In this document: one piece after another, positions 26,195 through 53,112 of the stretch | Numbering within the stretch: position 1 is the stretch's first letter | Layout of the letters: every line of letters starts with the position of its first letter | Assembly: GCA_947482345.1 (NCBI GenBank) | Contig: CANKJN010000001.1 | Coordinates: 1,558 to 65,557, forward strand | DNA length: 64,000 nt | DNA from: Spartobacteria bacterium | Lineage (GTDB): Bacteria > Verrucomicrobiota > Verrucomicrobiia > Chthoniobacterales > UBA6821 | Direction: 5' to 3' | The notes under the pieces: generated by a model | What the model was told of the DNA's origin: nothing | The model's input: the letters and a program-made list of their open reading frames with translations, nothing else | Databases searched by the model: none | Translations under genes and position numbers: made by a program

Positions 26195-26358
26195 TGGACG
26201 GAAGCACAGGGGTGCGTCAAGAGACCAAGCTATCGGAGCGGGAAGGTCTTTTCCTTTGAACGCAGCTTTTGCCTCTTTGCTATTCTGAGTGGGCTTCCGC
26301 GAGGATCTTCACCACCGTGCCCTGTAGCTTGAGAGGGAGGACAGAGAGGGGAGTGAGA

Positions 26359-26588
26359 TTTTGAATCAGAAACCAGGAAGACATGAAGTTAGGAGTCGGG
26401 TATTCGTCACAAAGCTTCCCTCTCTTGGTCGGGTTGCAGTGCGCGTGCTCCTGCAACCCGGCATGAAGATTGAAAGGGGGCAAGGGCCCTCCCGGCTATC
26501 AGTGGCCGGTGATGACCGTCCGGATGCCTGCCCGTCTTGGTTTTTCCTTCTTCTGCTTAGCTTCTGCTGGTTTCTCCGTGATTCAAAA
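26359..26588. repeat. 230-bp element bounded by about 18-nt inverted repeats
   Basis: TTTTGAATCAGAAACCAG (26359-26376) pairs with CTGGTTTCTccgTGATTCAAAA (26567-26588), with a 3-nt bulge. An internal 9-bp hairpin is GGGTTGCAG...CTGCAACCC (about 26431-26460). No convincing CDS inside. Confidence 0.5.
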
Positions 26589-26730
26589 ATCCACTAGATT
26601 TCATCCTTTTTTCCTGCCTTCCAGCTTTGGGTGACCCGGCCCCTACTCCGCACCGTTACGGCTGATTTTCCCCTTGTCTTGTCTTCACCCACTGAAACAG
26701 CAAGGAGCAAGAAACACCACGCAAATGGCA

Positions 26731-27441
26731 TCAAATCCCATCGCTGATAGTCTCGGCACATGAAATCAAGCCCTTTAAAAGTATTTTCGCACTCTTTGAA
26801 GATCCCTTCATTTTCAAACACGATATCGCCAAGGCCGCCACAATCTTTCCGTCACCATTCCGAACAGGAACACCCGTGTCCGTGATGCCCTCGACCTGAA
26901 AACTTCTGGCCGACTCGTACCCCAGCTTCCTGATCCGCGCCAGAACAGATTGTTCCACCTTCTTGCTTTCGGGATGACGAATCGCTCCGTACGCCAAAAG
27001 AATGCGCCCTGACACTGTTCGCACAGGATCCAAGCGCGCGCCTTCCTGCAGACTAAGACGCACCAAACTTCCACCGGGAACATCAAGCAAAAGAAGGGCC
27101 GCATCCCCATCCGGCACGCTCAGGTGAATCGACTCCCCGCATGTTCTGGCAAAAATCGCCATGGGCCCGTGCGCTGCCTGCCTCAGTTTGAAATGGACCG
27201 GAAGCGCCTGGGCCAGATCCACAATCTTGCCGGAGATGAAATAGGCGGCCGAGGAGGACCTGTTCAGGTAACCGCGCGCATGAAGGCATGCCACGGGGCG
27301 CTGCACTTCCGAAACACTCAAGGAAAGCCCCTGTGCGATTTGCGTCAAAGTCGCCGGCTCCGATTGTTTTGCAAACCACTCAATAAGATCAAGCCCGCGA
27401 TCAAGGGCAGGAATCTGAATGGAACGTTTGGATTTTTTCAT
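26731..27441 (-). CDS. IclR-family transcriptional regulator
   Basis: Start taken at MKKSKRSIQIPALDRGLDLIEWF. An N-terminal wHTH and a C-terminal effector domain. Divergent from the sugar-acid genes. Confidence 0.8.
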   Translation of the reverse strand: MKKSKRSIQIPALDRGLDLIEWFAKQSEPATLTQIAQGLSLSVSEVQRPVACLHARGYLNRSSSAAYFISGKIVDLAQALPVHFKLRQAAHGPMAIFARTCGESIHLSVPDGDAALLLLDVPGGSLVRLSLQEGARLDPVRTVSGRILLAYGAIRHPESKKVEQSVLARIRKLGYESARSFQVEGITDTGVPVRNGDGKIVAALAISCLKMKGSSKSAKILLKGLISCAETISDGI

Positions 27442-27489
27442 GATAAATTTTATTGCATACGATAATTTGATGAAGAAACATCCTTTCAA

Positions 27490-28170
27490 ATGGTCCACAA
27501 CACCCCCTCCGAAATCAACTACAATGAATCATTTGGAGAGCGCTTGGAACAATGCTATTCGGGCGCCGTCTATGACACGCTGCGCTCCATGGGATATCCG
27601 GATCAGATTCTTCCACGCTCGATTCGCCCGCTGGATCCTCAGAGAGCCATGGCGGGACGGATTTTCACGATCAGCGGTCACGCCGATCACACCGTGGACG
27701 GGCACACCACGCTTCTGGAATGGACGCGCATGTTGTCGCGCGCCCCGAAAAACAGCGTTGTGGTCTGTCAACCAAACGACGACACGCTGGCACACATGGG
27801 AGAATTGTCGGCGGAGACTTTTGTTTACAAGGGAATCCGGGGTTATCTCTGCGACGGGGGATGCCGCGACACGGTCCGCATTCTGGAAACCGGACTGAAA
27901 ACCTGGTTCAGATACCACACCCCGCGCGATGTCGTGGGCCGCTGGGTACCGGATCGCTTCGGAGAACCCATCGTGATCGGCAATGTAAGCATCAGAACCG
28001 GCGACTATATCATGGCCGATCGCGACGGAGCGCTCGTCATACCGCAGGAAATCATTACCGAGGTCACCGAAAAGGTGGAGGAGGTTCTTCGCACTGAAAA
28101 CAAGGTCCGGACAGCCATTCTCCAAGGCGTGGATCCCGTTGAAGCCTACCTTCAACACAGGAAGTTCTGA
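27490..28170 (+). CDS. RraA-like protein (putative 2-keto-4-hydroxy-acid aldolase/decarboxylase family)
   Basis: 226 aa. GAVYDTLRSMG, HMGELSAETFVYKGIRGYLCDGGCRD, GDYIMADRDGALVIP. Confidence 0.8.
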   Translation: MVHNTPSEINYNESFGERLEQCYSGAVYDTLRSMGYPDQILPRSIRPLDPQRAMAGRIFTISGHADHTVDGHTTLLEWTRMLSRAPKNSVVVCQPNDDTLAHMGELSAETFVYKGIRGYLCDGGCRDTVRILETGLKTWFRYHTPRDVVGRWVPDRFGEPIVIGNVSIRTGDYIMADRDGALVIPQEIITEVTEKVEEVLRTENKVRTAILQGVDPVEAYLQHRKF

Positions 28171-28173
28171 ACC

Positions 28174-28479
28174 ATGCAGCCGGCCATCCGCCTTTTCCCC
28201 TCCGATAATATTCTCGTGCTTGTACGCAGTCTCGATGCGGGTGACGAAGTGCTCATCGAGGGAGCGGTCCATATACTCAAGGCATCCCTCGGATTGGGCC
28301 ACAAGATTGCTGCAAAAAAAATCGCCATCGGTGACAGAATTCTCAAATACGGCGCCCCGATTGGCTCTGCAACGGCGGAAATCCAACCAGGCGAGCATGT
28401 TCATTTGCATAACATGAAGAGCGACTACCTGCCTACGTTCACATTGGACAAGGGCTGCGAATTCCATAAAAACCCATGA
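28174..28479 (+). CDS. UxaA-family sugar-acid dehydratase, small (SAF-domain) subunit
   Basis: 101 aa. NILVLVRSLDAGDEV, LGHKIAAKKIAIGDRILKYGAPIG, GEHVHLHN. 4-nt overlap with the next gene. Confidence 0.8.
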   Translation: MQPAIRLFPSDNILVLVRSLDAGDEVLIEGAVHILKASLGLGHKIAAKKIAIGDRILKYGAPIGSATAEIQPGEHVHLHNMKSDYLPTFTLDKGCEFHKNP

Positions 28480-29690
28480 CCCCCCCCATTCTCACGAGCA
28501 ATGCGTTTCTCCGCTCGGACGGACGAAAGGGGATCCGCAACATCGTCACCGTAGTCTATCTGGTCGAGTGCGCGCACCATGTCTCGCGCGAGATTCAAAC
28601 TCCTTTTCGCGACCAGGGCGTTCACCTTCTGGGGTTCAGTGGCTGTTATCCCAATGAATACTCCTTCCGCATGCTGCGCAGCCTTTGCACCCATCCCAAT
28701 GTTGGAGCGGTGCTGCTCGTTTCGTTAGGTTGCGAAGGCTTCAACCGCAAAGGTCTTTTGGAGGCCGTCCGTGCAACGGGACGCCCCGCCGGGTTGCTTG
28801 TTATCCAACAAGCCGGCGGAACCCGATCGACGATCCGGAGCGGACGCGATTGGGTTAGCAAAACACTTCGGGAATTGGAATCGACTCCACGCACCACGAT
28901 GGCGCTCAACGAACTCGTGGTTGGAACCGTATGCGGAGGGAGCGACGGCACAAGCGGCATCACCGCAAACCCGGCAATCGGGCGCGCTTTCGACCGATTG
29001 GTCTCGGAAGAGGCCTGCTGCATTTTTGAGGAAACCGGTGAACTGATCGGGTGCGAACAAATCATGGTCTCGCGGGCAGTCACGCCTGAACTCGGAAGGA
29101 TTCTTGATGAGTCCGTGGTAAAGGCCGCCCGTTATTATGCAACCCTTGGTCACGGCAGCTTCGCGCCCGGCAATGCCGATGGAGGATTGACCACCCAGGA
29201 GGAAAAAAGCATGGGGGCCTACTCCAAGAGCGGATCCTCCCCGATTTCCGGACTGATCAAACCGGGGGATGTTCCCCGCAAGGGCGGTCTTTACCTCCTC
29301 GATGTCGTCCCGGACGGTGAGGTGCGGTTCGGATTTCCAAACATCAATGACAATGCCGAGATTGCGGAACTCATCGCCTGCGGCTCACATGTGATCCTTT
29401 TCGCCACCGGGCGGGGATCAGTCGTCGGTTCGGCAATCTCTCCGGTGATCAAAGTCTGCGCGAATCCGGAAACTTTTCTGAATCTTCCGGAGGACATGGA
29501 TGTGAATGCGGGGCGGATTCTTGAGGGCGAGTCGAATCTTGATCAAGTGGGGGACGAAATCCATGGCTTGATAAAACGCATCGCCGATGGTCAGCCAACG
29601 GCCTCGGAATCCCTCAACCACCAGGAGTTCGTTCTCGGCTACAAGAGCTTCGAACCGGTCGGCCCAACATGTCACCCAACCTACCAATGA
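28476..29690 (+). CDS. UxaA-family sugar-acid dehydratase, large subunit
   Basis: 404 aa. GIRNIVTVVYLVECAHHV, LLVSLGCEG, GTVCGGSDGTSGITANPA, ILFATGRGSVVG. Confidence 0.85.
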   Translation: MTPPILTSNAFLRSDGRKGIRNIVTVVYLVECAHHVSREIQTPFRDQGVHLLGFSGCYPNEYSFRMLRSLCTHPNVGAVLLVSLGCEGFNRKGLLEAVRATGRPAGLLVIQQAGGTRSTIRSGRDWVSKTLRELESTPRTTMALNELVVGTVCGGSDGTSGITANPAIGRAFDRLVSEEACCIFEETGELIGCEQIMVSRAVTPELGRILDESVVKAARYYATLGHGSFAPGNADGGLTTQEEKSMGAYSKSGSSPISGLIKPGDVPRKGGLYLLDVVPDGEVRFGFPNINDNAEIAELIACGSHVILFATGRGSVVGSAISPVIKVCANPETFLNLPEDMDVNAGRILEGESNLDQVGDEIHGLIKRIADGQPTASESLNHQEFVLGYKSFEPVGPTCHPTYQ

Positions 29691-30493
29691 ACCTCCAACT
29701 CTCGGACAAGGTTATCCTCATAACCGGCGGCGCCAAAGGAATCGGCGAGGGAATCACAAATGCCTTCGCTGAAGAAGGAGCCATCGCCTGCATTCTGGGA
29801 CGCAATCCAAAGGAAGCGGCTGCAATTATGGAAAAACAGACGGCCAGGGGAAATCGTGTCGAGTCGTATGCCATCGAAATGACGGATGACTCGACGATTC
29901 GGGAAGCTGTATCCCGGATCGCCCTCAAACACGGACACATCGACGCTGTCATCAACAATGCGGGCGGAAACGATGCAATCGGACTTCGCCATGGCCCGGA
30001 GGATTTCCGCCGTTCATTGGAGAAGAATATCGTCTCCTGTTTTTCCCTGATTCATCACGCTCTGGACCACCTCATCGCCTCGCGTGGCGTCATCATCAAC
30101 ATCGGCTCCAAATGCTCCGTGACCGGACAGGGCGGCACGAGCGGCTATGCGGCAAGCAAAGGCGCGATGAACGCACTGACGCGGGAGTGGGCCCTGGACC
30201 TTGCACCCCACGGCATCAGAGTTAATTGCGTTCTTCCCGCCGAGGTCATCACCCCGCTCTATGAACGCTGGTTGGCACAGGCTCCCGATCCCGCCGTTGC
30301 CCGGGAGCAACTCAACCGCACGATTCCACTGGAACGCCGCACGACAACCGTGGAGGAAATCGCGGACACCGTCGTTTTCCTCACCTCCCCGAAATCATCC
30401 CACACCACCGGCCAACTGATCTTTGTCGACGGCGGCTACGTTCACCTCGACCGTGCCTGCACCCAGCCTACATCACACTTGAAAGCCTCGTGA
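29687..30493 (+). CDS. SDR-family oxidoreductase (putative sugar 1-dehydrogenase)
   Basis: Start MNLQLSDKVILITGGAKGIGEG, in an ATGA overlap with the upstream stop. Catalytic YAASKGA. Confidence 0.85.
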   Translation: MNLQLSDKVILITGGAKGIGEGITNAFAEEGAIACILGRNPKEAAAIMEKQTARGNRVESYAIEMTDDSTIREAVSRIALKHGHIDAVINNAGGNDAIGLRHGPEDFRRSLEKNIVSCFSLIHHALDHLIASRGVIINIGSKCSVTGQGGTSGYAASKGAMNALTREWALDLAPHGIRVNCVLPAEVITPLYERWLAQAPDPAVAREQLNRTIPLERRTTTVEEIADTVVFLTSPKSSHTTGQLIFVDGGYVHLDRACTQPTSHLKAS

Positions 30494-30503
30494 AATAATA
30501 CCG

Positions 30504-30827
30504 ATGAAACGCATTGGTTCACTCATCCGCCTCCTCCCCGAGAAATACCAGGAATACAAAGCCCTCCACGCCGCAGTCTGGCCTGAGATTCTGGCAAAGA
30601 TCACCTGCCACGGGATTCGGAACTACTCAATCTACCACAAGGATGGTTTTTTATTTTCCTACTTTGAATACGTTGGCAGCAACTTTGACGCCGACATGGC
30701 AAAGATGGCCGCTGATCCTAAAATTCAGGAATGGTGGCAACTTTGCAAACCCTGCCAGAACCCACTCGACTCCCGCTGGGCAGGCGAATGGTGGGCTGAC
30801 ATGGAGGAGCTTTTTCACTGCGACTGA
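30504..30827 (+). CDS. L-rhamnose-mutarotase-family protein (6-deoxyhexose mutarotase)
   Basis: 107 aa. MKRIGSLIRLLPEKYQEYKALHAAVWPEIL, IRNYSIYHKDGFLFSYFEY, EWWADMEELFH. Confidence 0.85.
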   Translation: MKRIGSLIRLLPEKYQEYKALHAAVWPEILAKITCHGIRNYSIYHKDGFLFSYFEYVGSNFDADMAKMAADPKIQEWWQLCKPCQNPLDSRWAGEWWADMEELFHCD

Positions 30828-30854
30828 AGGGGGTCCCGTCTGGGATAAATCGAC

Positions 30855-31709
30855 ATGATCGACACTCATCAACATCTGATCCATCCCGACAGATTCACCT
30901 ACTCATGGGCGGATGACATACCTGTATTGCATGGTCCGTTCCGCCTTCAGGAATACAAAAAAGCCGCCCACCCGACCGCGTTCGAAGGGAGCCTCTTCAT
31001 GGAGGTCGATGTCGATGAGGCCCAATCAGCGGATGAAGCGCGATTTTTCTGCCAACTTGCCGAAATTCCCTCCAACCGGATTCTCGGTGTGATTGCTGCA
31101 GCAAGGCCTGAAAAGGATGACTTTGCACATTATCTCGATTCCATAGCGCATGAGCGCGTTGTCGGCATCCGCCGCGTGCTCCACACCCAGCACGACGATC
31201 TTTCGGTAAGCCCGCTTTTCCGGAAAAACATCCGCCATCTGGCTGCCAGGAACCTCACATTCGACCTCTGCGTTCTCCAGCGCCAACTCCCATTGGCACT
31301 TGAACTCGTCAGGTCAGCACCGGATGTTTTCTTCGTGCTCGACCACTGCGGCGCACCTGACATCGCTGGCAACAATGCCGCCGACGGGACGGGATGGAAC
31401 CATTGGAAATCCGGGGTCAAAAGCCTGGCCTCATGTCCGAATGTCTTCGGCAAAATCTCCGGCCTCACCGTTTATGCCCCGGAAAATCTCCGAACCACCG
31501 ACGGTCTCGCCCCCTACTTCCTCACCATGCTTGAAGCCTTCGGTCCCGACCGCCTGGTTTGGGGCGGGGACTGGCCCGTCGTGAACCTCGGTTCCGGTCT
31601 TCCCGGATGGATTGACATCACCACCGAACTCCTCTCCCCCCTTACCATCACAGAAAGGGAAAACATCCTTTCACGGAACGCGCGCTCCATTTATCGCATC
31701 CCATCATGA
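30855..31709 (+). CDS. Amidohydrolase-2 family lactonase (fuconolactonase-like)
   Basis: 284 aa. MIDTHQHLIHPDRFTYSW, FVLDHCGAPD, LVWGGDWPV. Confidence 0.8.
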   Translation: MIDTHQHLIHPDRFTYSWADDIPVLHGPFRLQEYKKAAHPTAFEGSLFMEVDVDEAQSADEARFFCQLAEIPSNRILGVIAAARPEKDDFAHYLDSIAHERVVGIRRVLHTQHDDLSVSPLFRKNIRHLAARNLTFDLCVLQRQLPLALELVRSAPDVFFVLDHCGAPDIAGNNAADGTGWNHWKSGVKSLASCPNVFGKISGLTVYAPENLRTTDGLAPYFLTMLEAFGPDRLVWGGDWPVVNLGSGLPGWIDITTELLSPLTITERENILSRNARSIYRIPS

Positions 31710-32473
31710 GTCAGAAATGTTTCCAAAATCAAATCGCGGTCGTCACCGGCGGAGGTTCCGGAATTGGCCGTGCCGTGACGCTCCGCCTTGCCTCGGAAGG
31801 CGCCGAGGTTCACATCCTCGAGTTATCCCGTGATGGCGCCGAGGAAACCCTGGATCTCGTTCAGAAAGCAGGCGGCACCGCCCGTGCCATCGAAGCCGAT
31901 GTTTCCGATACAAAATCCGTTCGCGCTGCATTCGCCCGACTGTCACGCCTCGACATTCTGGTGAACAATGCCGGCGTCGCCCATGTCGGCAATGTGCTCC
32001 AGACGGAGCCAGGGGATCTCGATCGCCTATACAACATCAATGTGCGCGGCGTTTATCACTGCCTCCATTTTGGAATCCCGCTCATGCTGAAAAACTCCTC
32101 AGGCAGCATCGTGAACCTTGCCTCCATCGCCTCAAAAGTCGGTATTCCTGAACGGTTCGCCTACAGCATGACCAAGGGATCTGTGCTCTCCATGACACTC
32201 TCGGTTGCCCGCGATTTCGTGGGGCAGGGCATTCGATGCAATTGCGTTTGTCCGGCCCGCGTCCACACTCCCTTCGTGGATGGATTCCTTGCCAAAAACT
32301 ACCCAGGTCAGGAAACCGAGATGTTCGCCAAACTCTCTGCTGGCCAACCCATCGGACGTATGGGCACGCCGGATGAGATCGCCGCGCTCATCTCCTTCCT
32401 CTCCTCAAAAGACGCGGCCTTCATCACGGGTTCCGCCTACGATATAGACGGAGGTTTTACTCTTTTACGCTAA
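31706..32473 (+). CDS. SDR-family oxidoreductase (putative 2-keto-3-deoxy-sugar-acid 4-dehydrogenase)
   Basis: 255 aa. VTGGGSGIGRAV, NNAGV, YSMTKGS. 4-nt overlap with the upstream gene. Confidence 0.85.
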   Translation: MSQKCFQNQIAVVTGGGSGIGRAVTLRLASEGAEVHILELSRDGAEETLDLVQKAGGTARAIEADVSDTKSVRAAFARLSRLDILVNNAGVAHVGNVLQTEPGDLDRLYNINVRGVYHCLHFGIPLMLKNSSGSIVNLASIASKVGIPERFAYSMTKGSVLSMTLSVARDFVGQGIRCNCVCPARVHTPFVDGFLAKNYPGQETEMFAKLSAGQPIGRMGTPDEIAALISFLSSKDAAFITGSAYDIDGGFTLLR

Positions 32474-32485
32474 CAAACTACACTT

Positions 32486-33346
32486 ATGAAACTCATCAAA
32501 TTCGGTTCACCAGGCTCGGAAAAAACCGGAGTTATCCTTGAAAACGGAAAAACCATCGATGTCTCCACCTTTACCCCGGACTACAACGAGGCCTTTTTCG
32601 AATCCAATGGCCTCTCACGCCTTTCACAATGGCTCAAAAACAACGCTGCTTCGGCTCCCGAGGTTCCCCCCGGAATCCGACTCGGTTCACCCATCGGCCG
32701 TCCAAGCAAGATCATTTGCATCGGCCTGAATTACAGCGACCATGCAAAGGAAAGCGGCATGGCCGTGCCGGCCGAGCCGATTATCTTTTTCAAATCCACA
32801 ACGGCGATCACCGGACCCAACGACGAACTCCTCATCCCGCAAGGATCCAAAAAAACCGATTGGGAAGTAGAACTCGCCGTGGTGATCGGAAAAACAGCGC
32901 GTTCCATCAAGGAGGAACATGCCCTCGAACATGTTGGCGGCTACATGCTCCACAATGACTACAGCGAACGGGAGTGGCAACTGGAGCGCGGCGGTCAATG
33001 GGTCAAAGGAAAAAGCGCCGATACCTTCGCCCCCTTCGGTCCTTGGCTGACAACTCCCGACGAGCTTCCCGACCCCCACAATCTCCGCCTATGGCTTTCT
33101 GTCAACGGGGTGATGAAGCAGGACGGCAACAGCCGCAACCTGATTTTCAGAATTCCTCATCTGGTGAGCTACCTCAGCCACTTCATGACCCTGCTTCCGG
33201 GCGATGTCATCTCGACTGGCACACCCGCGGGTGTCGGCCTTGGGTTCACCCCCCCTCAGTATCTAGTTGCCGGAGATGTTGTCGAACTCGGCATAGACGG
33301 CCTGGGAACTCAAAGGCAAACCGCGTCAGCTCTTACACTCGCCTAG
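32486..33346 (+). CDS. Fumarylacetoacetate-hydrolase-family protein (putative diketo-acid hydrolase)
   Basis: 286 aa. KIICIGLNYSDHAKE, WEVELAVVIGK, GDVISTGTPAGVG. Confidence 0.88.
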   Translation: MKLIKFGSPGSEKTGVILENGKTIDVSTFTPDYNEAFFESNGLSRLSQWLKNNAASAPEVPPGIRLGSPIGRPSKIICIGLNYSDHAKESGMAVPAEPIIFFKSTTAITGPNDELLIPQGSKKTDWEVELAVVIGKTARSIKEEHALEHVGGYMLHNDYSEREWQLERGGQWVKGKSADTFAPFGPWLTTPDELPDPHNLRLWLSVNGVMKQDGNSRNLIFRIPHLVSYLSHFMTLLPGDVISTGTPAGVGLGFTPPQYLVAGDVVELGIDGLGTQRQTASALTLA

Positions 33347-33558
33347 GGAACCGCTGATTTAAAGATGGCTGGATCACTTGAGTTGACTTTTCTTCTCCAT
33401 TTTTTCCTGATTTCCAGGTTAATACTTCGGACCTCTTTCCATGCAGATGTTCCCACCCTTCGGTTCCAGGGGTCCAACATACATTGCAGAGTATGGGTTG
33501 AACCCTCTCCCCTCCCTGCATTGACACCTTTCCGGCCAACGGCTTTCATCCTCACCGC

Positions 33559-34135: not shown

Positions 34136-34840
34136 ATGCTCCCCGACATCGAAAAACTCCTCACCCTCCAGGACCGCGACCAGAAGCTGCGCGCCGTCCT
34201 GACCGAGATTGCAGCCCTCCCCGCCGAGAAGGCGACCCGCGACCGAGAGCTCAAGGCCGCGGACGACCGACTCGAAGCGGCCCGGACGCGCCAGAAGGAG
34301 ATCGAGGTCGAGCGCAAGAGGCTCCAGGGCGAGGTCAAGGCGAAGCAGGACCAGATCGCCCGTTATAAGAACCAGCAGCTCGAGACCCGCAAGAACGAGG
34401 AGTTCTCCGCCCTGCGCCACGAGATCGAAGTCGCCGAGAAGGCCGTCACCGAACTCGAGGACAAGGAACTCGTCCTCATGGAGGAGGCCGAGAGCCTCAA
34501 GCCCGCGCTGGAAGCCGCGCAGGAGGCCCACGCCGCGGAGAAGAAGAAAGTCGAGAGCCACATGGCCTCGCTCACCGCGCGCAAGGAGAACCTCGATGCC
34601 CGTCAGAAGGAGCTCGAAACCGAGCGCCCCCGCTTCACCGAAGGAATCGAGGAAGATCTCCTCGACCGCTACAACAGACTCTTCAAGAGCAAGAACGGCG
34701 TCGCACTCGTCACCGTGGAGCACGAAGTCTGCACAGGCTGCCACATGAAGGTCACCCATCAGGCCATCCTCGAAGTGAAGGCCGAGAAGGAGATCATCGG
34801 CTGCCCGCAGTGTGGACGTATTCTCTACGAACCCAAATAG
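34136..34840 (+). CDS. Coiled-coil protein with C-terminal zinc ribbon (COG1579/DUF164-like)
   Basis: 234 aa. Long heptad-like E/K/L-rich region, then CTGCHMKV...CPQCGRILY. Confidence 0.8.
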   Translation: MLPDIEKLLTLQDRDQKLRAVLTEIAALPAEKATRDRELKAADDRLEAARTRQKEIEVERKRLQGEVKAKQDQIARYKNQQLETRKNEEFSALRHEIEVAEKAVTELEDKELVLMEEAESLKPALEAAQEAHAAEKKKVESHMASLTARKENLDARQKELETERPRFTEGIEEDLLDRYNRLFKSKNGVALVTVEHEVCTGCHMKVTHQAILEVKAEKEIIGCPQCGRILYEPK

Positions 34841-35199
34841 TTTGGGGCTTGTGAGAGTTGGCGGATAGCGGCGTTGCCGCTCGCTTGCAGTAGTTCACTA
34901 CAGCGGCACTCGCGCGCCTTGCTCTCCATCCAATCTCTCTGCGCCTAAAGCCTAGCAAAATTTAAACCCGAACTCTGAAGATTAGAGAGATGCGTTGGTG
35001 TTAAGATGGTGGTCGATAGAAGTTGCGGGGATCCGTTCCCACCTTCAGTTTTTAGCATCCCTGCACCCAACGGGCTCGCTACGTTGGAGCGCGAGTTCAT
35101 TGGTGCGCTGGAGGTGGCAATCGGATTCTCACCGATTCGGGAGCTTTCACTCCCGACCCAATTGGATGCCACCCCGCAGCCGCCCACCATCAGGCGGGA

Positions 35200-35352
35200 C
35201 TACATCTCGCTCTGGACAGCTCTGGCGCCCTTGCTGACACCTCGGCCTGTGGCACTGACGTCCTGACCGACGCCCCTAATGGTGTTACAACCCGTAAGGG
35301 TGGCAGCAGCGAGGATGACCAGGGCTAGCATGGTTAGTGTGGTTGTTTTCAT
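35200..35352 (-). CDS. Entericidin EcnA/B-like small lipoprotein (50 aa; not in ORF track)
   Basis: My own translation: MKTTTLTMLALVILAAATLTGCNTIRGVGQDVSATGRGVSKGARAVQSEM, followed by a stop. Lipobox LTGC followed by a Gly-rich amphipathic tail. An in-frame alternative ATG lies at 35379. Confidence 0.6.
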   Translation of the reverse strand: MKTTTLTMLALVILAAATLTGCNTIRGVGQDVSATGRGVSKGARAVQSEM

Positions 35353-35428
35353 GGCATTGGATGTGGTGGATTGTTTCATACGCAGCAGTTATCCCACACC
35401 CCTCGACCGCTTTCCATTGGTAGAAGCA

Positions 35429-36047: not shown

Positions 36048-36197
36048 ATGCTCTACACGATCGCCCTGGTTTTAATCATCCTTTGGTTGCTCGGCCTCGT
36101 CAGCAGTTACACGATGGGTGGATTCATTCATATCCTGCTGGTCGTCGCCTTGGTGGTGCTGCTTGTCCGGATCATCCAGGGGAATCGGATACCCTGA
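36048..36197 (+). CDS. lmo0937-family small membrane protein (49 aa; not in ORF track)
   Basis: My own translation: MLYTIALVLIILWLLGLVSSYTMGGFIHILLVVALVVLLVRIIQGNRIP, followed by a stop. It matches the widespread two-helix lmo0937-type pattern as I remember it. Confidence 0.65.
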   Translation: MLYTIALVLIILWLLGLVSSYTMGGFIHILLVVALVVLLVRIIQGNRIP

Positions 36198-36322
36198 GTT
36201 CTGTCACGGAGTGAACAAGTGAAACGTAGAAAGTGAAGGGGTAAAAGGGAAACCAACAAGGAGAATACCCCGACAAGGCGTTATAGATTAGGAATTCAGG
36301 ATTATAGAAATGGAGCGGCTAT

Positions 36323-37219
36323 CTACGGCGTGTTCATCTTGCGTTGTATGAGCGTGCCAAAAATCCCAATAAATTCTTTATACTTAGGTGAGTTTCTCAC
36401 GTGTGCGTGCATTGACTGATTACTGTGACATTCAATGCAGAGGGCAATCAGGTTGTGATGGGAATTGTCGCTTCGGTTTCCATTTTTGTGATGAGCTTCC
36501 AAAAATCTCTTGTTGGATCCCGAGAGATCCAAGCCGCAATCTTGATTCATACATCTCCACTTAGCCTGTTCTCGTAGCGCGAAACTGATTTTTTCCCAGT
36601 TTGATGGGTAATTATTTACTGGAGATGTCATCTCCGTACTCGCTGGGAGATTTGTGAAGCTATGTACCTTGGGCTTGAGTTCAAAAAAATGAACTGGCTT
36701 GAATTTTGAAATGTATTCCTTGCGCTCAATAGCCCTCAACAATCTAAAATCATCGTGATTCAATTCATAAAGGCAGTAGGCGCATGCATTGAGGGGAACT
36801 TTAGTCGTTGTTTTTTGACCATCACGGAAAAGGTTTATTTGGAAGGATCCCGTCATTTCAGCGGCAACTTTATATCTATGAAAGCGCTGACTCTTCTGCA
36901 TTTGGACAAGTGTCTTGCAGTTGAAGAAGTGGTATTTAGGATAGTTGTCCTCGATGGATTTATTGTTATATATATGCTTGTCTCTTATGTATAAGAGAAC
37001 ACGCCTTTCCTTAAAGGCGATTGTGCCGTCAGGAAGTTGCGTGAGATCACTGAGCTCAATCTCGACACCTTCTCCCGATTCCAGTTTCTTTAATTCATCC
37101 AGTGTTAGGCCGGAAGTGATCTGAGTCGGCTTGTAGTCACCATACTCATCGGTGGACAGCCCCATCAGGGACTTCAATCCGTTAAGTCCGCTATCGAGTT
37201 TGAAGTCGGGAAGCATCAT
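36323..37219 (-). CDS. HNH nuclease-domain protein (ZorE-like position)
   Basis: C-terminal HNH: RCMNQDCGLDLSGSNKRFLEAHHKNGNRSDNSHHNLIALCIECHSNQ. Unknown N-terminal domain of about 230 aa. The start is uncertain (ATG at 37264, 37219, 37216 or 37165) and overlaps the upstream gene end (37191). AT-rich. Confidence 0.75.
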   Translation of the reverse strand: MMLPDFKLDSGLNGLKSLMGLSTDEYGDYKPTQITSGLTLDELKKLESGEGVEIELSDLTQLPDGTIAFKERRVLLYIRDKHIYNNKSIEDNYPKYHFFNCKTLVQMQKSQRFHRYKVAAEMTGSFQINLFRDGQKTTTKVPLNACAYCLYELNHDDFRLLRAIERKEYISKFKPVHFFELKPKVHSFTNLPASTEMTSPVNNYPSNWEKISFALREQAKWRCMNQDCGLDLSGSNKRFLEAHHKNGNRSDNSHHNLIALCIECHSNQSMHAHVRNSPKYKEFIGIFGTLIQRKMNTP

Positions 37220-38084
37220 TATTCTTGGCCTTTTCAAGAATGTCCGAAAACTTTTCGTCCGCATTGGTCCTTACTCGAAATTCCACACGCTGAGAGCGAA
37301 CCGGATCTTCTTTTCCAGAGCTATCTTTTTTTATTTTGGAAGACGATAGTCCATTCGCAGTTAAGTGAGTGATTACCCAACTTCGAATTTCGGGAGCCTT
37401 CAAAGACTTTAGTGAAAGCAAATAGCCCAATGTTTGCCTAGTTCGCGATTGCGATAACTCCATATTCTTGATGTAAGCATCATCAGGGTTAGCATTTTCC
37501 CATGTCGAGGAGGTATGCCCTTCGATCCTGACCTCTTCGATGCTATCTGTGTATTGCTGGCTTCTTAGGATTTCTATGTATCGAGGAAAAAACTCGTCCA
37601 GGATTGCCTGGAATTTTGGTTTGAGAGAATCTTGGCCGACATCAAATAAAACATCAGGCTCTTTGAAGCTTATACTTAAGTCTTGTGGATTAATCTCCGC
37701 ACCCCAGCTCATTATTTTATCCCCAAATGCTTTCGTAAGATCATCATATAAAAGTTTTTTGGTGTTGTCATAAGTTGCCGCAATATCAGATATACTCCCC
37801 TCTTTATTCTTTAACTTTTCAAGCAATGCCTTATTTAGTTTTTGAAGAGCTTCAAGTTCTATTTGAGCAGCATTTTTTTGAGCTTCTGCTGTCCTTTGTG
37901 CCTCATAGCTTTTTTTAATTACATCTATCTCGTGTGTTTTATTTCTTTGAACCTGAACCATGTAAAGCACAGCTATCAGCAAGAAAACCAACATCAGTCC
38001 AGTCATTAGATCGCTTAGAGGAATCCAGTGATCGTCTTTGGAACCACCGCCACCCTTGCCTGATAAGATGTCTTTCAGAGACAT
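37191..38084 (-). CDS. MotB/OmpA-like protein (ZorB-like)
   Basis: 297 aa. N-terminal TM with a conserved Asp (DDHWIPLSDLMTGLMLVFLLIAVLY) and a coiled-coil linker. C-terminal OmpA-like fold (LFDVGQDSLKPKF..., EEVRIEGHTSS, NMELSQSRTRQ, SQRVEFRV). Confidence 0.8.
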   Translation of the reverse strand: MSLKDILSGKGGGGSKDDHWIPLSDLMTGLMLVFLLIAVLYMVQVQRNKTHEIDVIKKSYEAQRTAEAQKNAAQIELEALQKLNKALLEKLKNKEGSISDIAATYDNTKKLLYDDLTKAFGDKIMSWGAEINPQDLSISFKEPDVLFDVGQDSLKPKFQAILDEFFPRYIEILRSQQYTDSIEEVRIEGHTSSTWENANPDDAYIKNMELSQSRTRQTLGYLLSLKSLKAPEIRSWVITHLTANGLSSSKIKKDSSGKEDPVRSQRVEFRVRTNADEKFSDILEKAKNNDASRLQTR

Positions 38085-38090
38085 ATCTGC

Positions 38091-39326
38091 TTAGCGAGGT
38101 GTCATGTTTACCAATTGACGCAGCTTTTCTGTCAACGGCGTGTAGTCCTGAACAAATCTCTGAGATAGAGCTGTGAGTTGTGAGCCCAAGGAACTCAACG
38201 ATTTGTTGAGCTCTTCAGACAAGGCTTTATCCAACAAGACGACATTCTCTCGGGCTTTGTCTGCAAGTTCAGTGAACTGCTTCCCGCACTGATCATTCGC
38301 CTCCAGAAGACCCCGGTTGAGGTCTGCAAGCATATCCTTGATTTTGGAGGCGCTACTCTCAATAGCTGAATTCAGCGCTGTTTGATTACCCGTCATCGCG
38401 GAGGATAGCTGATCCGTGATCGCCATGATTTTCTTCTCGATTTCGGGCATGCTTCCGGAAGCGTTCTTAAGAAGATTCCCCAGTTCCTCCGAGACTCTGG
38501 CGAGGTTCTTTTTCTCAGAATCAAGATGAACAATCATCTTCCCGAGATCCGTAGCTATTTCCGTAAATTTTCCAGACTCATGAATGACCTGTGCATAGTC
38601 TGCCGATGCCTTGGTGAGTAAATCCGTTGTTTTAGTGAGCTCTGCCTGAGTTTGCTCCAACGTGGCCCTGTAGTTATCCTGCCATTGAAGAAGCTTCCCA
38701 ACGGCGAGATTGAGTTCCTTGAAATTATCCCCGAATTGCTCGGTGATCTTCTGATTGAAATCCTTGATCACCTCGCTGAGCGCCTCCACCAGAGCTTTGG
38801 AACTCATTTGTGAGAGCTGATCCAATGCGGCCACCTGTGCTGCCTTCAACTGATCGAGTCTCTCATTGGTATCCGCTCTTGTGAGCTTTACTTGGGAGAT
38901 CAGAGTCCCATCTTCACTTCCTACTAGTCCTTCCCTAATTGCATGAAGGGACTTGAGAAGATCTGCGGCAGAAACCTCGTCCGCATGCGTGATTCCTCCC
39001 TCGATGATCTCGTGGCCATACAAATAGTCCCTACACTTAATGCTCAATGCGCCAGCCACTCCGAAGACGGATCCCCAAAAGGCCGTCTGTAGACTTTGTA
39101 AAAGTTGAGGAATGCTAGATGAAATGAGATCCACGTTCGAGAGTTTCAGGTCCGAAAGCCCCCATGCAACTCCTACAAAAGTAGCCAGAATACCCAGCGT
39201 GGTCAGAATCGCTGGAGCCTGAGCAACCGTTCTGGCATTGAACCTTTTATGAAAACCGATCGTAGCGGCGATGATCGTTCCTACGAAAAGCGTGGTGAGA
39301 AACTCCGGCTGCATAGTGTGGGTCAT
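38091..39326 (-). CDS. MotA/ExbB-like channel protein with a long coiled-coil tail of about 300 aa (ZorA-like, compact)
   Basis: 411 aa. Three TMs in the first 110 aa or so, including an ExbB/MotA-style hairpin (APAILTTLGILATFVGVAWGL ... LQTAFWGSVFGVAGALSI). The rest is Q/E/K/L/A-rich helical sequence. 6-nt gap to the MotB-like gene. Confidence 0.7.
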   Translation of the reverse strand: MTHTMQPEFLTTLFVGTIIAATIGFHKRFNARTVAQAPAILTTLGILATFVGVAWGLSDLKLSNVDLISSSIPQLLQSLQTAFWGSVFGVAGALSIKCRDYLYGHEIIEGGITHADEVSAADLLKSLHAIREGLVGSEDGTLISQVKLTRADTNERLDQLKAAQVAALDQLSQMSSKALVEALSEVIKDFNQKITEQFGDNFKELNLAVGKLLQWQDNYRATLEQTQAELTKTTDLLTKASADYAQVIHESGKFTEIATDLGKMIVHLDSEKKNLARVSEELGNLLKNASGSMPEIEKKIMAITDQLSSAMTGNQTALNSAIESSASKIKDMLADLNRGLLEANDQCGKQFTELADKARENVVLLDKALSEELNKSLSSLGSQLTALSQRFVQDYTPLTEKLRQLVNMTPR

Positions 39327-39371
39327 TATTTAACACCCTGTTGTCAGAAAACGAGCATGATCTATGATGAA

Positions 39372-39386
39372 GATCACATTGTGATC
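39372..39386. promoter_or_regulatory. Perfect palindrome GATCACA-T-TGTGATC upstream of the MotA-like gene (candidate operator)
   Basis: 7-bp arms around a central T, 46-60 nt upstream of the ATG at 39326. Function is inferred only. Confidence 0.3.
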
Positions 39387-39449
39387 GCCACTTGATGCCC
39401 GGCCATGACGTCCTCCTTAAAAAGGGCGTCAAGCTTGGATGGAGAGTTG

Positions 39450-39478
39450 GGCGCCCAAGCTCAGCTGTATGAGACATA
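39450..39478. repeat. 29-bp direct repeat, copy A (GGCGCCCAAGCTCAGCTGTATGAGACATA)
   Basis: 27 of 29 positions identical to 40052-40080, in the same orientation. The next 18 nt or so are partly similar too. Confidence 0.75.
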
Positions 39479-39551
39479 ATGTGAGCGAAAGCGACCTTAG
39501 CTACAACGTCTACCCCTTGATTTCAGCCACTATCGGTCATAACCTCTTCCC

Positions 39552-39749
39552 ATGAGCATTCAGGAAATCGAGAACGCCGTGTCGAAGCTCTCTGCGCAGG
39601 AGCTTTCCGTTTTCTCCCAATGGTTCGAGGAATATGTGGCGGACCAATGGGATCGCCAGATCGAGCGTGATGCCACCGCTGGACGCCTGAACGAGTCTCT
39701 CAATCGGGCAGGGGAACATCGTGAGGCGGGACGCGTCACCCCCCTTTGA
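39552..39749 (+). CDS. Type II antitoxin (addiction-module component)
   Basis: 65 aa. MSIQEIENAVSKLSAQELSVFSQWFEEY pattern. Its stop overlaps the toxin TTG start (TTGA). Confidence 0.7.
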   Translation: MSIQEIENAVSKLSAQELSVFSQWFEEYVADQWDRQIERDATAGRLNESLNRAGEHREAGRVTPL

Positions 39750-40006
39750 ACCACTACGCTGATCCTGATTTCTGGGCAGCCTATAAGAGGCTCCCCGATG
39801 CAATCCGTGATCTGGCGGACAAAAACTTTGCGCTCCTGAAGGCGGATCCCAGTCACCCTTCTCTCCGCTTCAAAAAGATCGGGCGAGTTCACTCTGTGCG
39901 TGTGGGTCTGCATTACCGAGCTCTGGCCATGGATCACCCGGACGGACTCCAATGGTTCTGGATCGGACACCATTCCGACTACGACCGCCTGCTCTCTGGA
40001 AAATAG
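39746..40006 (+). CDS. ParE/RelE-family type II toxin
   Basis: 86 aa. SLRFKKIGRVHSVRVGLHYRALAMDHPDGLQWFWIGHHSDYDRLL is characteristic of ParE-like toxins. Confidence 0.75.
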   Translation: MNHYADPDFWAAYKRLPDAIRDLADKNFALLKADPSHPSLRFKKIGRVHSVRVGLHYRALAMDHPDGLQWFWIGHHSDYDRLLSGK

Positions 40007-40051
40007 GAATGTTTTGGAATCCCCTGCGCAGGGATTTTTGATGCGGGGCTA

Positions 40052-40080
40052 GGCGCCCAAGCGCGGCTGTATGAGACATA
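40052..40080. repeat. 29-bp direct repeat, copy B (GGCGCCCAAGCGCGGCTGTATGAGACATA)
   Basis: Pairs with 39450-39478. Together the two copies bracket the toxin-antitoxin cassette. Confidence 0.75.
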
Positions 40081-40134
40081 CTGCAAGCGCAGGGCAACAA
40101 CGCCCCGGGCAAAAAGCGCAAGCATGTTGAACTC

Positions 40135-42147
40135 TTATGAGTTCAACATAGCCCGCATTTGTGCGAATCCGTCTAGAATGTCCGCCTCCTCCATCGGGGC
40201 GGAAAGAATCTCCTCAATGCTTCCCGACTCGACCCCCTCGCCGGCAAGTTCCAGCAGGAATGAGCTGGGGGTGCAGGACATGACGCTGCCGAATTTCCTG
40301 CGGGTGGCGCAGTGGGTGATGGTAAGGCGGTGGCGGGCGCGGGTGATGCCGACATAGAGGAGGCGGCGCTCTTCGTCGATGGTCCCCTCGCTCTTGGAGC
40401 GTTCGTGGGGGAGCAGTCCTTCCTCGGCGCCGACAAGCCAGACTTCGGGATACTCAAGTCCCTTGGCTGCGTGGAGGGTGATGAGGGTGACGCCGTCGCG
40501 TTCCTCGGCCTTCTCCTCTTCCTTCTCCTGCTCGAGCATGAGGCCGTCGAGGAAGCCGCGCGCGCCCTCCTTGGGATGGCGCTGGCAGTAGCCGCTCAGG
40601 GCATTGAGCAGCTCGCGGACATTCTCCTGGCGGTTGTCGGATTCCTCGTCGGTCTTGCAGCTCTTCTTGAGGTCCTCGAAGTAGCCGCACTCATCGAGAA
40701 TGCTTCTGAGGATGGCGGCGGCATCGGCCCCCGGCGTCTGAAGCTGGATGCGGTAGGCGCCCCAGTCCTCGGTGAAACGCTGGATGGCTCCCCTGGTTCT
40801 GGATGAGCTGACATCGAGATGTTCGGGGTCGTTCAGGATGGCGAGGAGCCCCTTGCCGTTCTTCGCGCCGGCCTCGGTCGCAAGCTGGAGCGTGGCGGCC
40901 CCGATGCCTCGCGGGGGATTGGCCAGCACGCGCAGGAGGGCGTTGTCATCGTCGGGATTGAGGAGGGCCCCCAGGTAGGCGACGACATCCTTCACTTCGC
41001 GACGGTCGAAGAAGCTCTTCCCCCCCACCACGCGGTAGGGGATGCGGCGCTCGCGCAGGACCTCCTCGAACTGCCGCGACTGGGCGTTCATCCGGTAGAG
41101 GATGGCGAAGTCGGTCCAGGGGCGGGCCTTGGAACTCTGCGGCCCCGAGGACTGGATCTCGTCGGCGATGAACTCGGCCTCGGTCTTGTCATCGGCCGCC
41201 GAGAGGATGCGGACGGGGTCGCCGTCGGTGCGGTCGCTCCAGAGGTTCTTACCGCGGCGGCGGGCGTTGTTCTTGATGAGCCGGTTGGCGACCTTGAGGA
41301 TGACGTCGGTGCTGCGGTAGTTCTGCTCGAGCTTGATGACCTCGGGATCGGGGAAATGCCGCTCGAACTCGAGGAGGTTGGAGGCCTCGGCGCCCCGCCA
41401 TCCGTAGATGCTCTGGTCATCGTCGCCGACGACGCAGATGTTCGGCCGCTCGTCGCCTGCCAGCAGGCTCACCAGCTCGAGCTGCAGCTTGTTGGTGTCC
41501 TGAAACTCATCCACCATGATGTGCTGGTAACGGGATCTCAGGTCCTCGCGGGCCTCGGGATGATCGCGAAGGAGCTCGCGGGCCTTGAGCAGGAGGTCGT
41601 CGAAGTCCATGGCGTTGAGCGTGCGCAGTTCGCTCTGGTACTTGGAGAAGAGGCTGCCGAGCGCCGTGCCGGTCTCCTCGGGTTCGCCGATGCCGAAGTT
41701 CTTCGCCTTGCTGATCACGTTGCGGGCGAGATTCGGATCCAGTGGGTTCTCCTTGTCGTGGATGCGCGCCGCCAGCTTCTTCATGAGCCCCATCTGGTCG
41801 GACTCGTCGAAGATGCTGAAGTTCTCCTTGTAGCCGAGGAGGTGGGCATGCTTCCGCAGCATGCGGACGCAGAGCGCATGGAAGGTGGAGAGGGTGATGA
41901 GCTTCGCCTGCTCGGAGTTCACGGAGCCCGCGACGCGTTCGCGCATCTCCTTGGCCGCTTTATTGGTGAAGGTGACGGCGAGGATCGAGGCGGGATCGAC
42001 TCCCTGGGCCACGAGCCACGCGATGCGCGCCGTGAGGACGCGTGTCTTCCCCGTGCCGGCGCCGGCGAGTATCAGCATCGGCCCGTCACCGTGGGTCGCG
42101 GCACGGTACTGCTCGGGGTTGAGATCGAAGAGGCGGAAGGAGGACAA
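40135..42147 (-). CDS. uvrD: UvrD/PcrA/Rep-family ATP-dependent DNA helicase
   Basis: 670 aa. Walker A ILAGAGTGKTRVLTARIAWL, TFHALC, MVDEFQDTN, QNYRST, TLHAAKGLEY, VGITRAR. Confidence 0.95.
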   Translation of the reverse strand: MSSFRLFDLNPEQYRAATHGDGPMLILAGAGTGKTRVLTARIAWLVAQGVDPASILAVTFTNKAAKEMRERVAGSVNSEQAKLITLSTFHALCVRMLRKHAHLLGYKENFSIFDESDQMGLMKKLAARIHDKENPLDPNLARNVISKAKNFGIGEPEETGTALGSLFSKYQSELRTLNAMDFDDLLLKARELLRDHPEAREDLRSRYQHIMVDEFQDTNKLQLELVSLLAGDERPNICVVGDDDQSIYGWRGAEASNLLEFERHFPDPEVIKLEQNYRSTDVILKVANRLIKNNARRRGKNLWSDRTDGDPVRILSAADDKTEAEFIADEIQSSGPQSSKARPWTDFAILYRMNAQSRQFEEVLRERRIPYRVVGGKSFFDRREVKDVVAYLGALLNPDDDNALLRVLANPPRGIGAATLQLATEAGAKNGKGLLAILNDPEHLDVSSSRTRGAIQRFTEDWGAYRIQLQTPGADAAAILRSILDECGYFEDLKKSCKTDEESDNRQENVRELLNALSGYCQRHPKEGARGFLDGLMLEQEKEEEKAEERDGVTLITLHAAKGLEYPEVWLVGAEEGLLPHERSKSEGTIDEERRLLYVGITRARHRLTITHCATRRKFGSVMSCTPSSFLLELAGEGVESGSIEEILSAPMEEADILDGFAQMRAMLNS

Positions 42148-43755: not shown

Positions 43756-43839
43756 GCTCGGGTGGTGAAATGGCAGACACGTACGTTTGAGGGGCGTATG
43801 CCGAAAGGCATGGGGGTTCAAGTCCCCCCCCGAGCACCA
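43756..43839 (+). tRNA. tRNA-Leu (anticodon GAG), CCA encoded
   Basis: Hand-folded. Acceptor GCTCGGG/CCCGAGC. Anticodon stem TACGT/GCGTA with loop TTGAGGG (GAG at 43789-43791). Long variable arm TGCC-GAAA-GGCA. T-arm GGGGG-TTCAAGT-CCCCC. Discriminator A plus CCA. Confidence 0.88.
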
Positions 43840-48800: not shown

Positions 48801-50966
<2,166 letters not shown>

Positions 50967-51031
50967 TGTCACCGAGCATACGGGGGCTCCTCGGCGGGTC
51001 AATAGGGGAGTGTGACCGCAGAGTGAGGTTT

Positions 51032-52708: not shown

Positions 52709-52747
52709 GGGTGGTGTGGATTTAAACACTTGAGAGAAGATGCCAAA

Positions 52748-52845
52748 GCCTGAGTCTTCTCCCTTCGACGGCATTACCCGTGTCAGGTTCAAAGGGTCGT
52801 CCGGTTGATGTTACGGACCTCTCAGCCGGCTGGCTCCCCCGCATG
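52748..52845 (-). promoter_or_regulatory. TPP (THI-box) riboswitch aptamer, copy 2 (leader of the decarboxylase gene)
   Basis: 98 of 98 nt identical to 50869-50966 (compared base by base). It is followed by a different 39-nt linker with no terminator hairpin/T-tract before the ATG at 52708. Confidence 0.9.
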
Positions 52846-53112
52846 CATCATCAGAATAGGCGCCTTCGGCTTTGGGTCAACGCTCCATGCTGATTCCCGG
52901 CACGGGTCTTTTTGGTCAACTGGTCGCATCCGGCCGGGGAGAGTGGTGTCTTGGGGCGACAAGGATCGCTATCGAAGGAAGGGTTTTTTGAAGGAAGGAG
53001 CAGGAGTCGCGGCTGAGTTCCGTGTTTTTTACTCTCTATGTGCCTGCGATCCCCTCACCACCTGGGTGAACATGGCTTCTCTGCAAGCCGGATTTCACTG
53101 CAAAACCTGGCT

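Follow-up and report, generated by a model that had tools for sequence, protein, structure and literature searches.

Within a 64,000-nucleotide stretch of a freshwater Verrucomicrobiota chromosome (Spartobacteria bacterium, contig CANKJN010000001.1; hereafter the window), positions 36323-39326 are spanned by three minus-strand open reading frames (ORFs) that are co-directional and adjacent, lie in the order zorA-zorB-zorE and, as set out below, belong to a Zorya anti-phage system. The zorA ORF (38091-39326, minus strand) encodes 411 residues and is separated by a gap of 6 nt from zorB (37191-38084, minus strand), which encodes 297. The longest ORF for zorE (36323-37264, minus strand) encodes 313 residues and overlaps zorB by 74 nt. 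Because the match to the ZorE2 profile starts at residue 17 and a metagenome gene caller also starts the gene at Met17, ZorE probably begins at Met16 or Met17 (37216-37219) and has 297-298 residues, which shortens the overlap to 26-29 nt. The original prediction, made from the letters of this DNA, had described three tightly packed genes of this orientation at the same positions, and all of the peptide motifs that it quoted are present.

We compared the three proteins with PADLOC, Pfam and NCBIfam profiles and with chains of solved structures, and scored their integrity against alignments of 53-75 relatives, calling near-invariant those columns that are at least 90% conserved. A GTDB scan supplied 243 relatives, and 80 loci were analysed. 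ZorA has a MotA/ExbB-like core with three transmembrane (TM) helices (residues 1 to about 100; 39027-39326, minus strand), followed by a helical cytoplasmic tail encoded by the rest of zorA (residues ~100-411, minus strand). Residues 13-408 matched positions 19-415 of the 420-position PADLOC ZorA2 profile PDLC00637 (E=5.8e-110), and residues 27-311 and 349-408 matched the 378-residue ZorA chain of PDB entry 8vvi (E=9.5e-56). There was no match to Pfam MotA_ExbB at E≤1. ZorA keeps 37 of 39 near-invariant family columns. In the tail, a block at residues 182-219 (38670-38783) is nearly invariant in 75 relatives (A182, L183, V186, D189, F190, N191, E196-QFGDNFK-203, L205, N206, A208, V209, W215, Q216 and Y219), and a C-terminal motif, F391..D394-Y395, lies at residues 391-395 (38142-38156); both are candidate effector-docking or bundle-organising sites.

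ZorB matched the PADLOC ZorB2 profile PDLC00641 (E=1.5e-88) in two stretches, the better of which aligns residues 86-286 with profile positions 37-237 of 238. The match to the 277-residue ZorB chain of 8vvi (E=1.7e-51) also fell into two stretches and skipped residues 49-103. Pfam recognised the OmpA domain (E=1e-8; 35.8 bits, above the cut-off of 27.2) and gave a weak MotB_plug match below cut-off (E=0.065). ZorB retains 51 of 52 near-invariant columns, including Asp25 of the TM helix, whose codon lies at 38010-38012 and which aligns with D21, the ion-coupling residue of Sulfuricurvum kujiense ZorB. ZorE matched the PADLOC ZorE2 profile PDLC00643 (E=2.6e-73) over residues 17-302, corresponding to profile positions 4-280 of 282. 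Its N-terminal domain carries a precomputed match to Pfam PF26739 (DUF8245), and its C-terminal domain contains an HNH motif (about 36407-36493, minus strand) that gave a weak, sub-threshold match to Pfam HNH_3 (E=0.0076). All 28 near-invariant columns are kept in ZorE. The HNH residues H258, H259, N271, H280 and H286 are retained, as are cysteines C238, C243, C276 and C279 and an N-terminal cluster of H112, C116, C161 and C164. The domain architecture and essential residues of ZorE have been described, and the H112/C116/C161/C164 cluster fits the N-terminal zinc site of Escherichia coli ZorE (PMC13192584). Among the profile similarities expected at the outset, those to OmpA for ZorB and to the ZorA2, ZorB2 and ZorE2 models of PADLOC were found, and that of ZorA to Pfam MotA_ExbB was not.

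The locus therefore combines a ZorA2 core and tail, a ZorB with a TM aspartate and an OmpA-like domain, and a DUF8245-HNH ZorE in the gene order typical of type II Zorya, an order conserved in about 65 of the 80 related GTDB loci. ZorA1 and ZorB1/B3 profiles scored far below the type II profiles. Downstream of zorAB, the effectors of type I (ZorC, ZorD) and of type III (ZorF, ZorG) are absent, and zorE is the sole gene there. We conclude with high confidence that the three genes form a complete, intact and functional-looking canonical type II Zorya system that the chromosome acquired recently. The type II assignment had already been suggested in the original prediction, and the PADLOC profiles, the 8vvi matches and the conserved A-B-E order all support it. 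The cassette is thus a further, divergent member of known Zorya II in the under-sampled phylum Verrucomicrobiota, and its only unusual feature is a helical ZorB stalk that is longer by about 50 residues. As a separate observation, zorA-zorB pairs at loci L016, L019, L022, L024 and L063, from marine Betaproteobacteria and Burkholderiaceae, have no downstream ZorE homologue at E≤1e-5, and their effector may differ.

Annotation by widely used models gives a different picture. None of the NCBIfam equivalog cut-offs was reached: ZorA scored 135.2 bits against a curated cut-off of 700 (NF041792), ZorB 200.3 against 400 (NF041787) and ZorE 128.2 against 600 (NF041791). We attribute this shortfall to the narrowness of models built on E. 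coli-type proteins and do not count it as evidence against family membership. Because these narrow cut-offs are not reached, relatives of ZorB are named 'OmpA/MotB family protein' in public records. Pfam alone also under-calls the system, with no MotA_ExbB match and with HNH_3 and MotB_plug below threshold. The locus therefore exposes an annotation gap, in which NCBI equivalog models miss the system and its ZorB is publicly an 'OmpA family protein'.

Base composition and strain comparison both point to acquisition from elsewhere. The segment 36243-39489 has a GC content of 44.8%, against 61.8% in the remainder of the window, and is the GC minimum among all 3247-bp windows of the 64 kb. GC content at third codon positions (GC3) is 38-55% in the cassette, whereas uvrD and the CT398-like gene to either side of it have 86-87%. 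The cassette is flanked by uvrD, purN, rpmA and rplU on one side and by the CT398-like gene on the other. The neighbouring UvrD is 88% identical to a protein from a 'Verrucomicrobia bacterium' metagenome-assembled genome (MAG) and 66-68% identical to Chthoniobacterales MAG proteins, which places the host in a Verrucomicrobiota lineage. Dozens of contigs whose UvrD is 92-94% identical have an empty site, with uvrD, about 650 bp and then the CT398-like gene. In another relative (L091), with flanks 97-99% identical, an 839-aa Ig/LamG gene occupies the slot that holds Zorya here. Since this alternative cargo delimits it, we place the strain-variable segment carrying Zorya, by blastn and alignments against L091, at 36243-39489 (unstranded).

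The nearest relative cassette (L106) lies at a second site, between recA and topA, in another genome of 62-65% GC. Its ZorB is 82% identical, its DNA is 82.5% identical over window positions 36351-39355 and its GC content is likewise low, which shows that the Zorya unit can move on its own. Of 62 related loci, 81% had a cassette whose GC content lay at least 3 points under that of its flanks; the median difference was -7.4 points. ZorA of identical sequence occurs on 10 contigs, one NCBI MAG included, and the five places that could be identified are separate samples; wherever these contigs extend far enough, the Zorya context is identical. A horizontal origin, which the original prediction had based on composition, is strongly supported by the low GC content and by presence and absence at strain level. 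The empty sites, the alternative cargo of L091 and the second site of L106 fit the patchy distribution that it had proposed to look for, and no Tol, TonB or flagellar genes lie nearby. We conclude that a bare cassette, about 3.0-3.25 kb long, was acquired recently at the variable slot that separates uvrD from the CT398-like gene.

We found no integrase or recombinase at the locus, and the sole tRNA, for Leu (43756-43839), is 4 kb distant, on the far side of uvrD; island borders of the tRNA or integrase type were rejected on these grounds. A search for a phage vector gave no tblastn match in 50,697 phage records, and all plasmid matches were below 34% identity. The locus does contain repetitive extragenic palindromic (REP)-like repeats. 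One copy (39435-39487, minus strand) marks the border between Zorya and a toxin-antitoxin (TA)-like pair and forms a 53-nt direct repeat, at 79% identity, with a second copy (40037-40089, minus strand) at the border between the TA-like pair and uvrD, which lies inside sequence conserved with the empty-site relatives. A further member of the family lies at 34877-34936 (plus strand). The repeat is about 60-70 nt long, dispersed and intergenic, and has an internal 7-bp hairpin with compensatory changes between copies. Other copies occur upstream of zorA in L106 (about 3365-3430), in L091 (about 15575-15640) and three times in L098 (2613-2691, 9048-9116 and 15529-15620), and a single copy is the sole element in the empty site of L098. 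Exact-pattern matching that allowed up to 3 mismatches did not detect the direct repeat in L091, where alignment then showed a diverged copy. Short blast matches at 44.1 kb and 63.9 kb of the window were rejected as copies for lack of a convincing alignment. REP-like copies border the variable modules of the uvrD/CT398 slot, and cassettes may be exchanged by recombination at this repeat. The locus is a clean case, from nature, of three defence genes that move by themselves between REP-like-marked chromosomal sites, with neither an integrase nor a tRNA.

Two further observations concern rearrangement in the same strains. In L091, positions 12182-12243 hold a 62-nt copy (90% identity) of the 3' end of the CT398-like gene (window 34779-34840) at the border of the LamG module, which suggests a past rearrangement or duplication at the hotspot. 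A second strain-variable region of the window, 26243-33518 (about 7.3 kb, about 55% GC), runs from an IclR regulator to an FAA hydrolase, contains genes of sugar-acid/deoxy-sugar catabolism type and is absent from L091.

The unusual feature of the system lies in ZorB. At 297 residues the protein is longer than the ORFs at 78 GTDB loci (median 236, maximum 266), and the excess lies wholly in the stretch that joins the TM helix to the first helix of the peptidoglycan-binding domain (PGBD). We measured this stalk as the residues between two invariant anchors, Met42 at the end of the TM helix and Ala102 in the first PGBD helix, in 195 ZorB2 proteins, a sample (P0001-P0120, loci L003-L082) enriched for relatives of the query. 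In the window the stalk comprises residues 43-101, or 59 residues (37782-37958, minus strand), against a family mode of 13, which places it in the top few per cent of the 195. Most relatives have 9-13 residues, and the Sulfuricurvum relative L030 has 9; compared with the class of 9-10 residues, which includes the solved structure, the window's ZorB is longer by about 49-50 residues, or seven heptads. Such an extension would measure about 7 nm if helical, at 1.5 Å per residue. The long stalk (52-59 residues) recurs in the four most similar database proteins, which have 290-302 aa and are 74-97% identical; among them its sequence diverges and its length is held.

Stalk lengths across the family are not spread evenly. 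A stalk of 13 residues was found in 105 proteins, 8-10 in 19, 34 in 16, 20 in 15, 27 in 13, and 6, 41 and 59 in six each, the last group including the window's ZorB; three proteins have 49, two have 52, and one each has 39, 43, 55 and 62. Not one of the 195 has a stalk of 14-19, 21-26, 28-33 or 35-38 residues. The lengths form a ladder in steps of seven (6, 13, 20, 27, 34, 41, 55, 62), and 10, 52 and 59 make up a second, smaller series. The ladder was reproduced with two other anchor pairs, and among 74 GTDB species representatives all stalks of at least 13 residues have 13+7n, the longest having 41. Such a pattern is characteristic of a coiled-coil stalk that lengthens in units of complete heptads. 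An AlphaFold2 model of the monomer (51-sequence alignment; mean predicted local distance difference test score, pLDDT, 86) has a single continuous helix over residues 23-126, in which pLDDT is above 90 at residues 31-80 but falls to 64 at 91-100, and a hydrophobic a/d pattern can be read by eye in the sequence of residues 73-105. Stalks of 39, 41 and 43 residues in P0005, P0007 and P0008 are Pro/Thr-rich spacers. Tandem Repeats Finder detected no DNA tandem repeat in the stalk coding region, and an origin of the stalk by tandem repetition was rejected.

We also inspected the region upstream of zorA. A promoter and terminator scan, in which promoters were sought by the sigma-70 consensus (a motif that Verrucomicrobiota may not use), gave counts no higher than expected from shuffled sequence, and with this same consensus no sigma-70-like promoter was found on the coding strand upstream of zorA. 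A perfect 15-nt palindrome, GATCACATTGTGATC (39372-39386), lies 46-60 nt upstream of the zorA start, and we do not claim it as an operator. In L106, the closest relative cassette, the sequence ahead of zorA does not retain the palindrome, which is therefore probably not a family-wide operator.

Several points weigh against the identification of a functional type II Zorya. The NCBIfam cut-offs for ZorA2, ZorB2 and ZorE were missed by far and the proteins are distant from references of the E. coli type, they are only moderately identical to the S. kujiense proteins of known structure, and stoichiometry, ion type, trigger and phage protection are properties that we infer for this system. Since the 59-residue stalk departs from the no-linker geometry behind the published sensing model, activation may differ in detail. 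The missed cut-offs, together with a ZorA far shorter than those of type I (583-729 positions in models and PDB chains), could also be read as signs of the miniaturised or otherwise undescribed subtype that the original prediction had proposed. That proposal fails because its yardstick of about 700 residues belongs to type I ZorA. The best PADLOC model, ZorA2, has only 420 positions, of which 19-415 are matched; ZorA of 78 relatives has a median length of 444 aa (10-90% range, 375-510), which puts 411 aa close to the 25th percentile; ZorA of the solved type II complex has 378 residues, with its core in about the first 100 (PMC11890865); and the effector is a standard ZorE. A ZorA of 411 residues is thus ordinary for type II, and we regard a separate subtype as very improbable.

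The genes might instead be a housekeeping stator pair of Tol, Exb or Mot type that happens to lie beside an unrelated HNH nuclease, a reading with which the OmpA domain and weak MotB_plug match of ZorB and the ExbB-like three-TM core of ZorA would agree. We give it next to no weight: ZorA has no Pfam MotA_ExbB match, no Tol, TonB or flagellar genes lie nearby, the three genes co-travel across phyla, and the cassette is missing from close relatives and foreign to the host in composition. It is also unlikely that the cassette was acquired and is now silent or decaying, no longer defending its host. GC3 of 38-55% in a host of about 87% GC3 could limit expression, and this strong mismatch in codons and GC content would favour such decay, as would the lack of a sigma-70-like promoter on the coding strand upstream of zorA. 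However, none of the three ORFs is broken, almost every near-invariant residue is retained, and the identical protein recurs across several samples. The 29 nt upstream of zorA fall within the 82.5% block shared with L106, conservation extends slightly further, and the promoter scan used a consensus that may be inapplicable to this phylum. An intact type II Zorya system remains our preferred interpretation.

How such a system works is known from studied homologues. Zorya II has a 5:2 stoichiometry, and defence requires the ZorB aspartate, peptidoglycan binding and the ZorA tail; ZorE has nickase activity and depends on ZorAB for its relocation to the membrane during infection (PMC11890865). The system tested was E. 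coli type II Zorya, with a D24N substitution, tail deletion, peptidoglycan-binding mutants and assays of ZorE nickase activity (PMC11890865). By homology, five copies of ZorA in the window's system would surround the TM helices of two copies of ZorB to form an ion-driven inner-membrane motor with Asp25 as the putative ion-coupling residue, and the OmpA-like domain of ZorB, as a dimer, would bind peptidoglycan. Perturbation of the envelope by phage would activate the motor, the bundled ZorA tail (about 310 residues) would relay the signal to the cytoplasm, and ZorE, with its DUF8245 and HNH domains, would be recruited to the membrane, nick DNA and halt phage propagation.

In the published model of envelope sensing, the resting complex cannot reach peptidoglycan since it has no linker (PMC11946911). 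The geometry of 8qyd and 8vvi, in which the PGBD sits on the TM helix without a linker, is descriptive rather than defining for the family, and 59 residues intervene in the window's ZorB. The sizes of Zorya components have been called 'well-conserved within each family' (PMC11890865), a statement that contrasts with the range of 6-62 residues in type II ZorB stalks. It is conceivable, although we lean against it, that the stalk is a rigid ruler of coiled-coil structure, that its length changes over evolution by complete heptads and that this length sets whether and when ZorB reaches the cell wall. If so, the distance from membrane to PGBD in this clade would exceed that in the solved structure by about 7 nm, the length of the stalk would be a tunable parameter of sensitivity or of matching to the envelope, and the published no-linker model of the resting state would become testable.

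A related and equally tentative proposal, which refines the type II reading and does not replace it, is that the long stalk alters how infection is sensed. The coiled coil may be fitted to a wider distance between membrane and peptidoglycan, or the PGBD may be permanently engaged, with a shifted activation threshold. Such a change would agree with the difference of 59 residues from the mode of 13 and from the 9-10 of the solved S. kujiense ZorB, with the length of 52-59 held in four relatives despite turnover of stalk sequence, with the agreement of the heptad ladder across anchor pairs, with the single helix predicted for residues 23-126 and with the need of the published model for a PGBD too near the membrane to reach peptidoglycan (PMC11946911). 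On the other hand, the foreign GC content of the cassette points to evolution of the stalk in a different host, and the stalk may therefore be unmatched to the present envelope. The AlphaFold2 prediction is of a monomer, and its pLDDT of 64 at residues 91-100 makes a hinge possible; the Pro/Thr-rich and evidently flexible spacers of some relatives suggest that length may be loosely constrained; and the protein sample is biased towards relatives of the query. The heptad-quantised long stalk is accordingly a modest but testable lead, and natural long-stalk variants of ZorB are ready-made test cases for a distance-based model of Zorya sensing.

A reading of the surroundings as a defence island is not supported. 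The original prediction had made this comparison, with a toxin-antitoxin pair and tiny membrane-peptide genes beside the module; we found a solitary three-gene insertion among housekeeping genes with one TA pair of ParE-like type beside it, and the membrane peptides, which do exist, lie outside the variable segment. The TA-like pair (39552-40006, plus strand), which is separate from Zorya and bracketed by the two direct-repeat copies of the REP-like element, consists of an antitoxin-like ORF of 65 aa (39552-39749, plus strand) that overlaps a downstream ParE-like toxin of 86 aa (39746-40006, plus strand; Pfam ParE_like PF24732, E=3.4e-7, above cut-off). The toxin has a TTG start and was missed by the metagenome gene caller. 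In L091 the toxin is absent and the antitoxin-like ORF is partly retained in altered form. The peptides are encoded by a DUF5670 gene (36048-36197) and an entericidin-like gene (35200-35379), a separate module that is also present in L091, which is without Zorya.

PADLOC found no other defence gene adjoining the cassette apart from a cross-match of UvrD (40135-42147, minus strand), which matches GajB and RTasHel with E values down to 1e-120. We rejected this call because every relative keeps uvrD next to purN-rpmA-rplU and GajA is absent; the case illustrates that matches of single genes to defence profiles are not meaningful here. Elsewhere in the window, two thiamine pyrophosphate (TPP) riboswitches (50864-50971 and 52743-52850, both minus strand; 59.6 and 61.5 bits, above the Rfam gathering score) lie within 2 kb of each other near the ThiC region.

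Among characterised systems, the type II ZorAB of S. kujiense DSM 16994, solved by cryo-electron microscopy (8vvi), is similar in several respects. Its ZorA is also short (378 residues against 411 here), with a membrane core in about the first 100 residues and a helical tail at 100-378 (Mariano et al. 2025, PMC11890865), and in its ZorB a TM aspartate (D21, aligned with D25 of the window's protein) accompanies an OmpA-like domain that dimerises. It differs in host phylum, in the window ZorB's extra 49-50 or so residues between TM helix and PGBD, and in a ZorA tail that is about 35 residues longer here and unmatched at residues 312-348. The type II systems of E. coli (ATCC 8739 and EDL933-type) share the three-gene architecture and order and the DUF8245-HNH ZorE, but have a ZorA of about 550 aa, to which the window's protein is about 25% identical; E. 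coli-type proteins are the basis of NF041792, NF041787 and NF041791. A Druantia-associated E. coli ZorE has an extra nuclease-like extension at its C terminus (PMC13192584), which ZorE of the window lacks; a 375-position PADLOC ZorE2 model is accordingly matched solely over positions 38-262.

More distant is type I Zorya (EcZorI, 8qyd; Hu et al. 2024, PMC11946911), which shares the logic of a ZorA5B2 motor and the concept of signalling through the tail. Similarity to its ZorA is confined to the TM core, at residues 33-96 (E of about 1e-5 to 1e-6). Type I ZorA has about 700 residues, the PGBD of type I ZorB is reported to be joined directly to the TM helix, with no linker, and the effectors are ZorC and ZorD, neither of which is present here. 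Finally, MotAB and ExbBD/TolQR belong with Zorya to the family of ion-driven 5:2 motors and have an aspartate in the TM helix of the B subunit, and MotB also carries an OmpA-like PGBD. Unlike the window's system, which has no Pfam MotA_ExbB match, a sub-threshold MotB_plug match and none of their partner genes near the cassette, these motors have neither a long cytoplasmic tail on the A subunit nor a nuclease effector.

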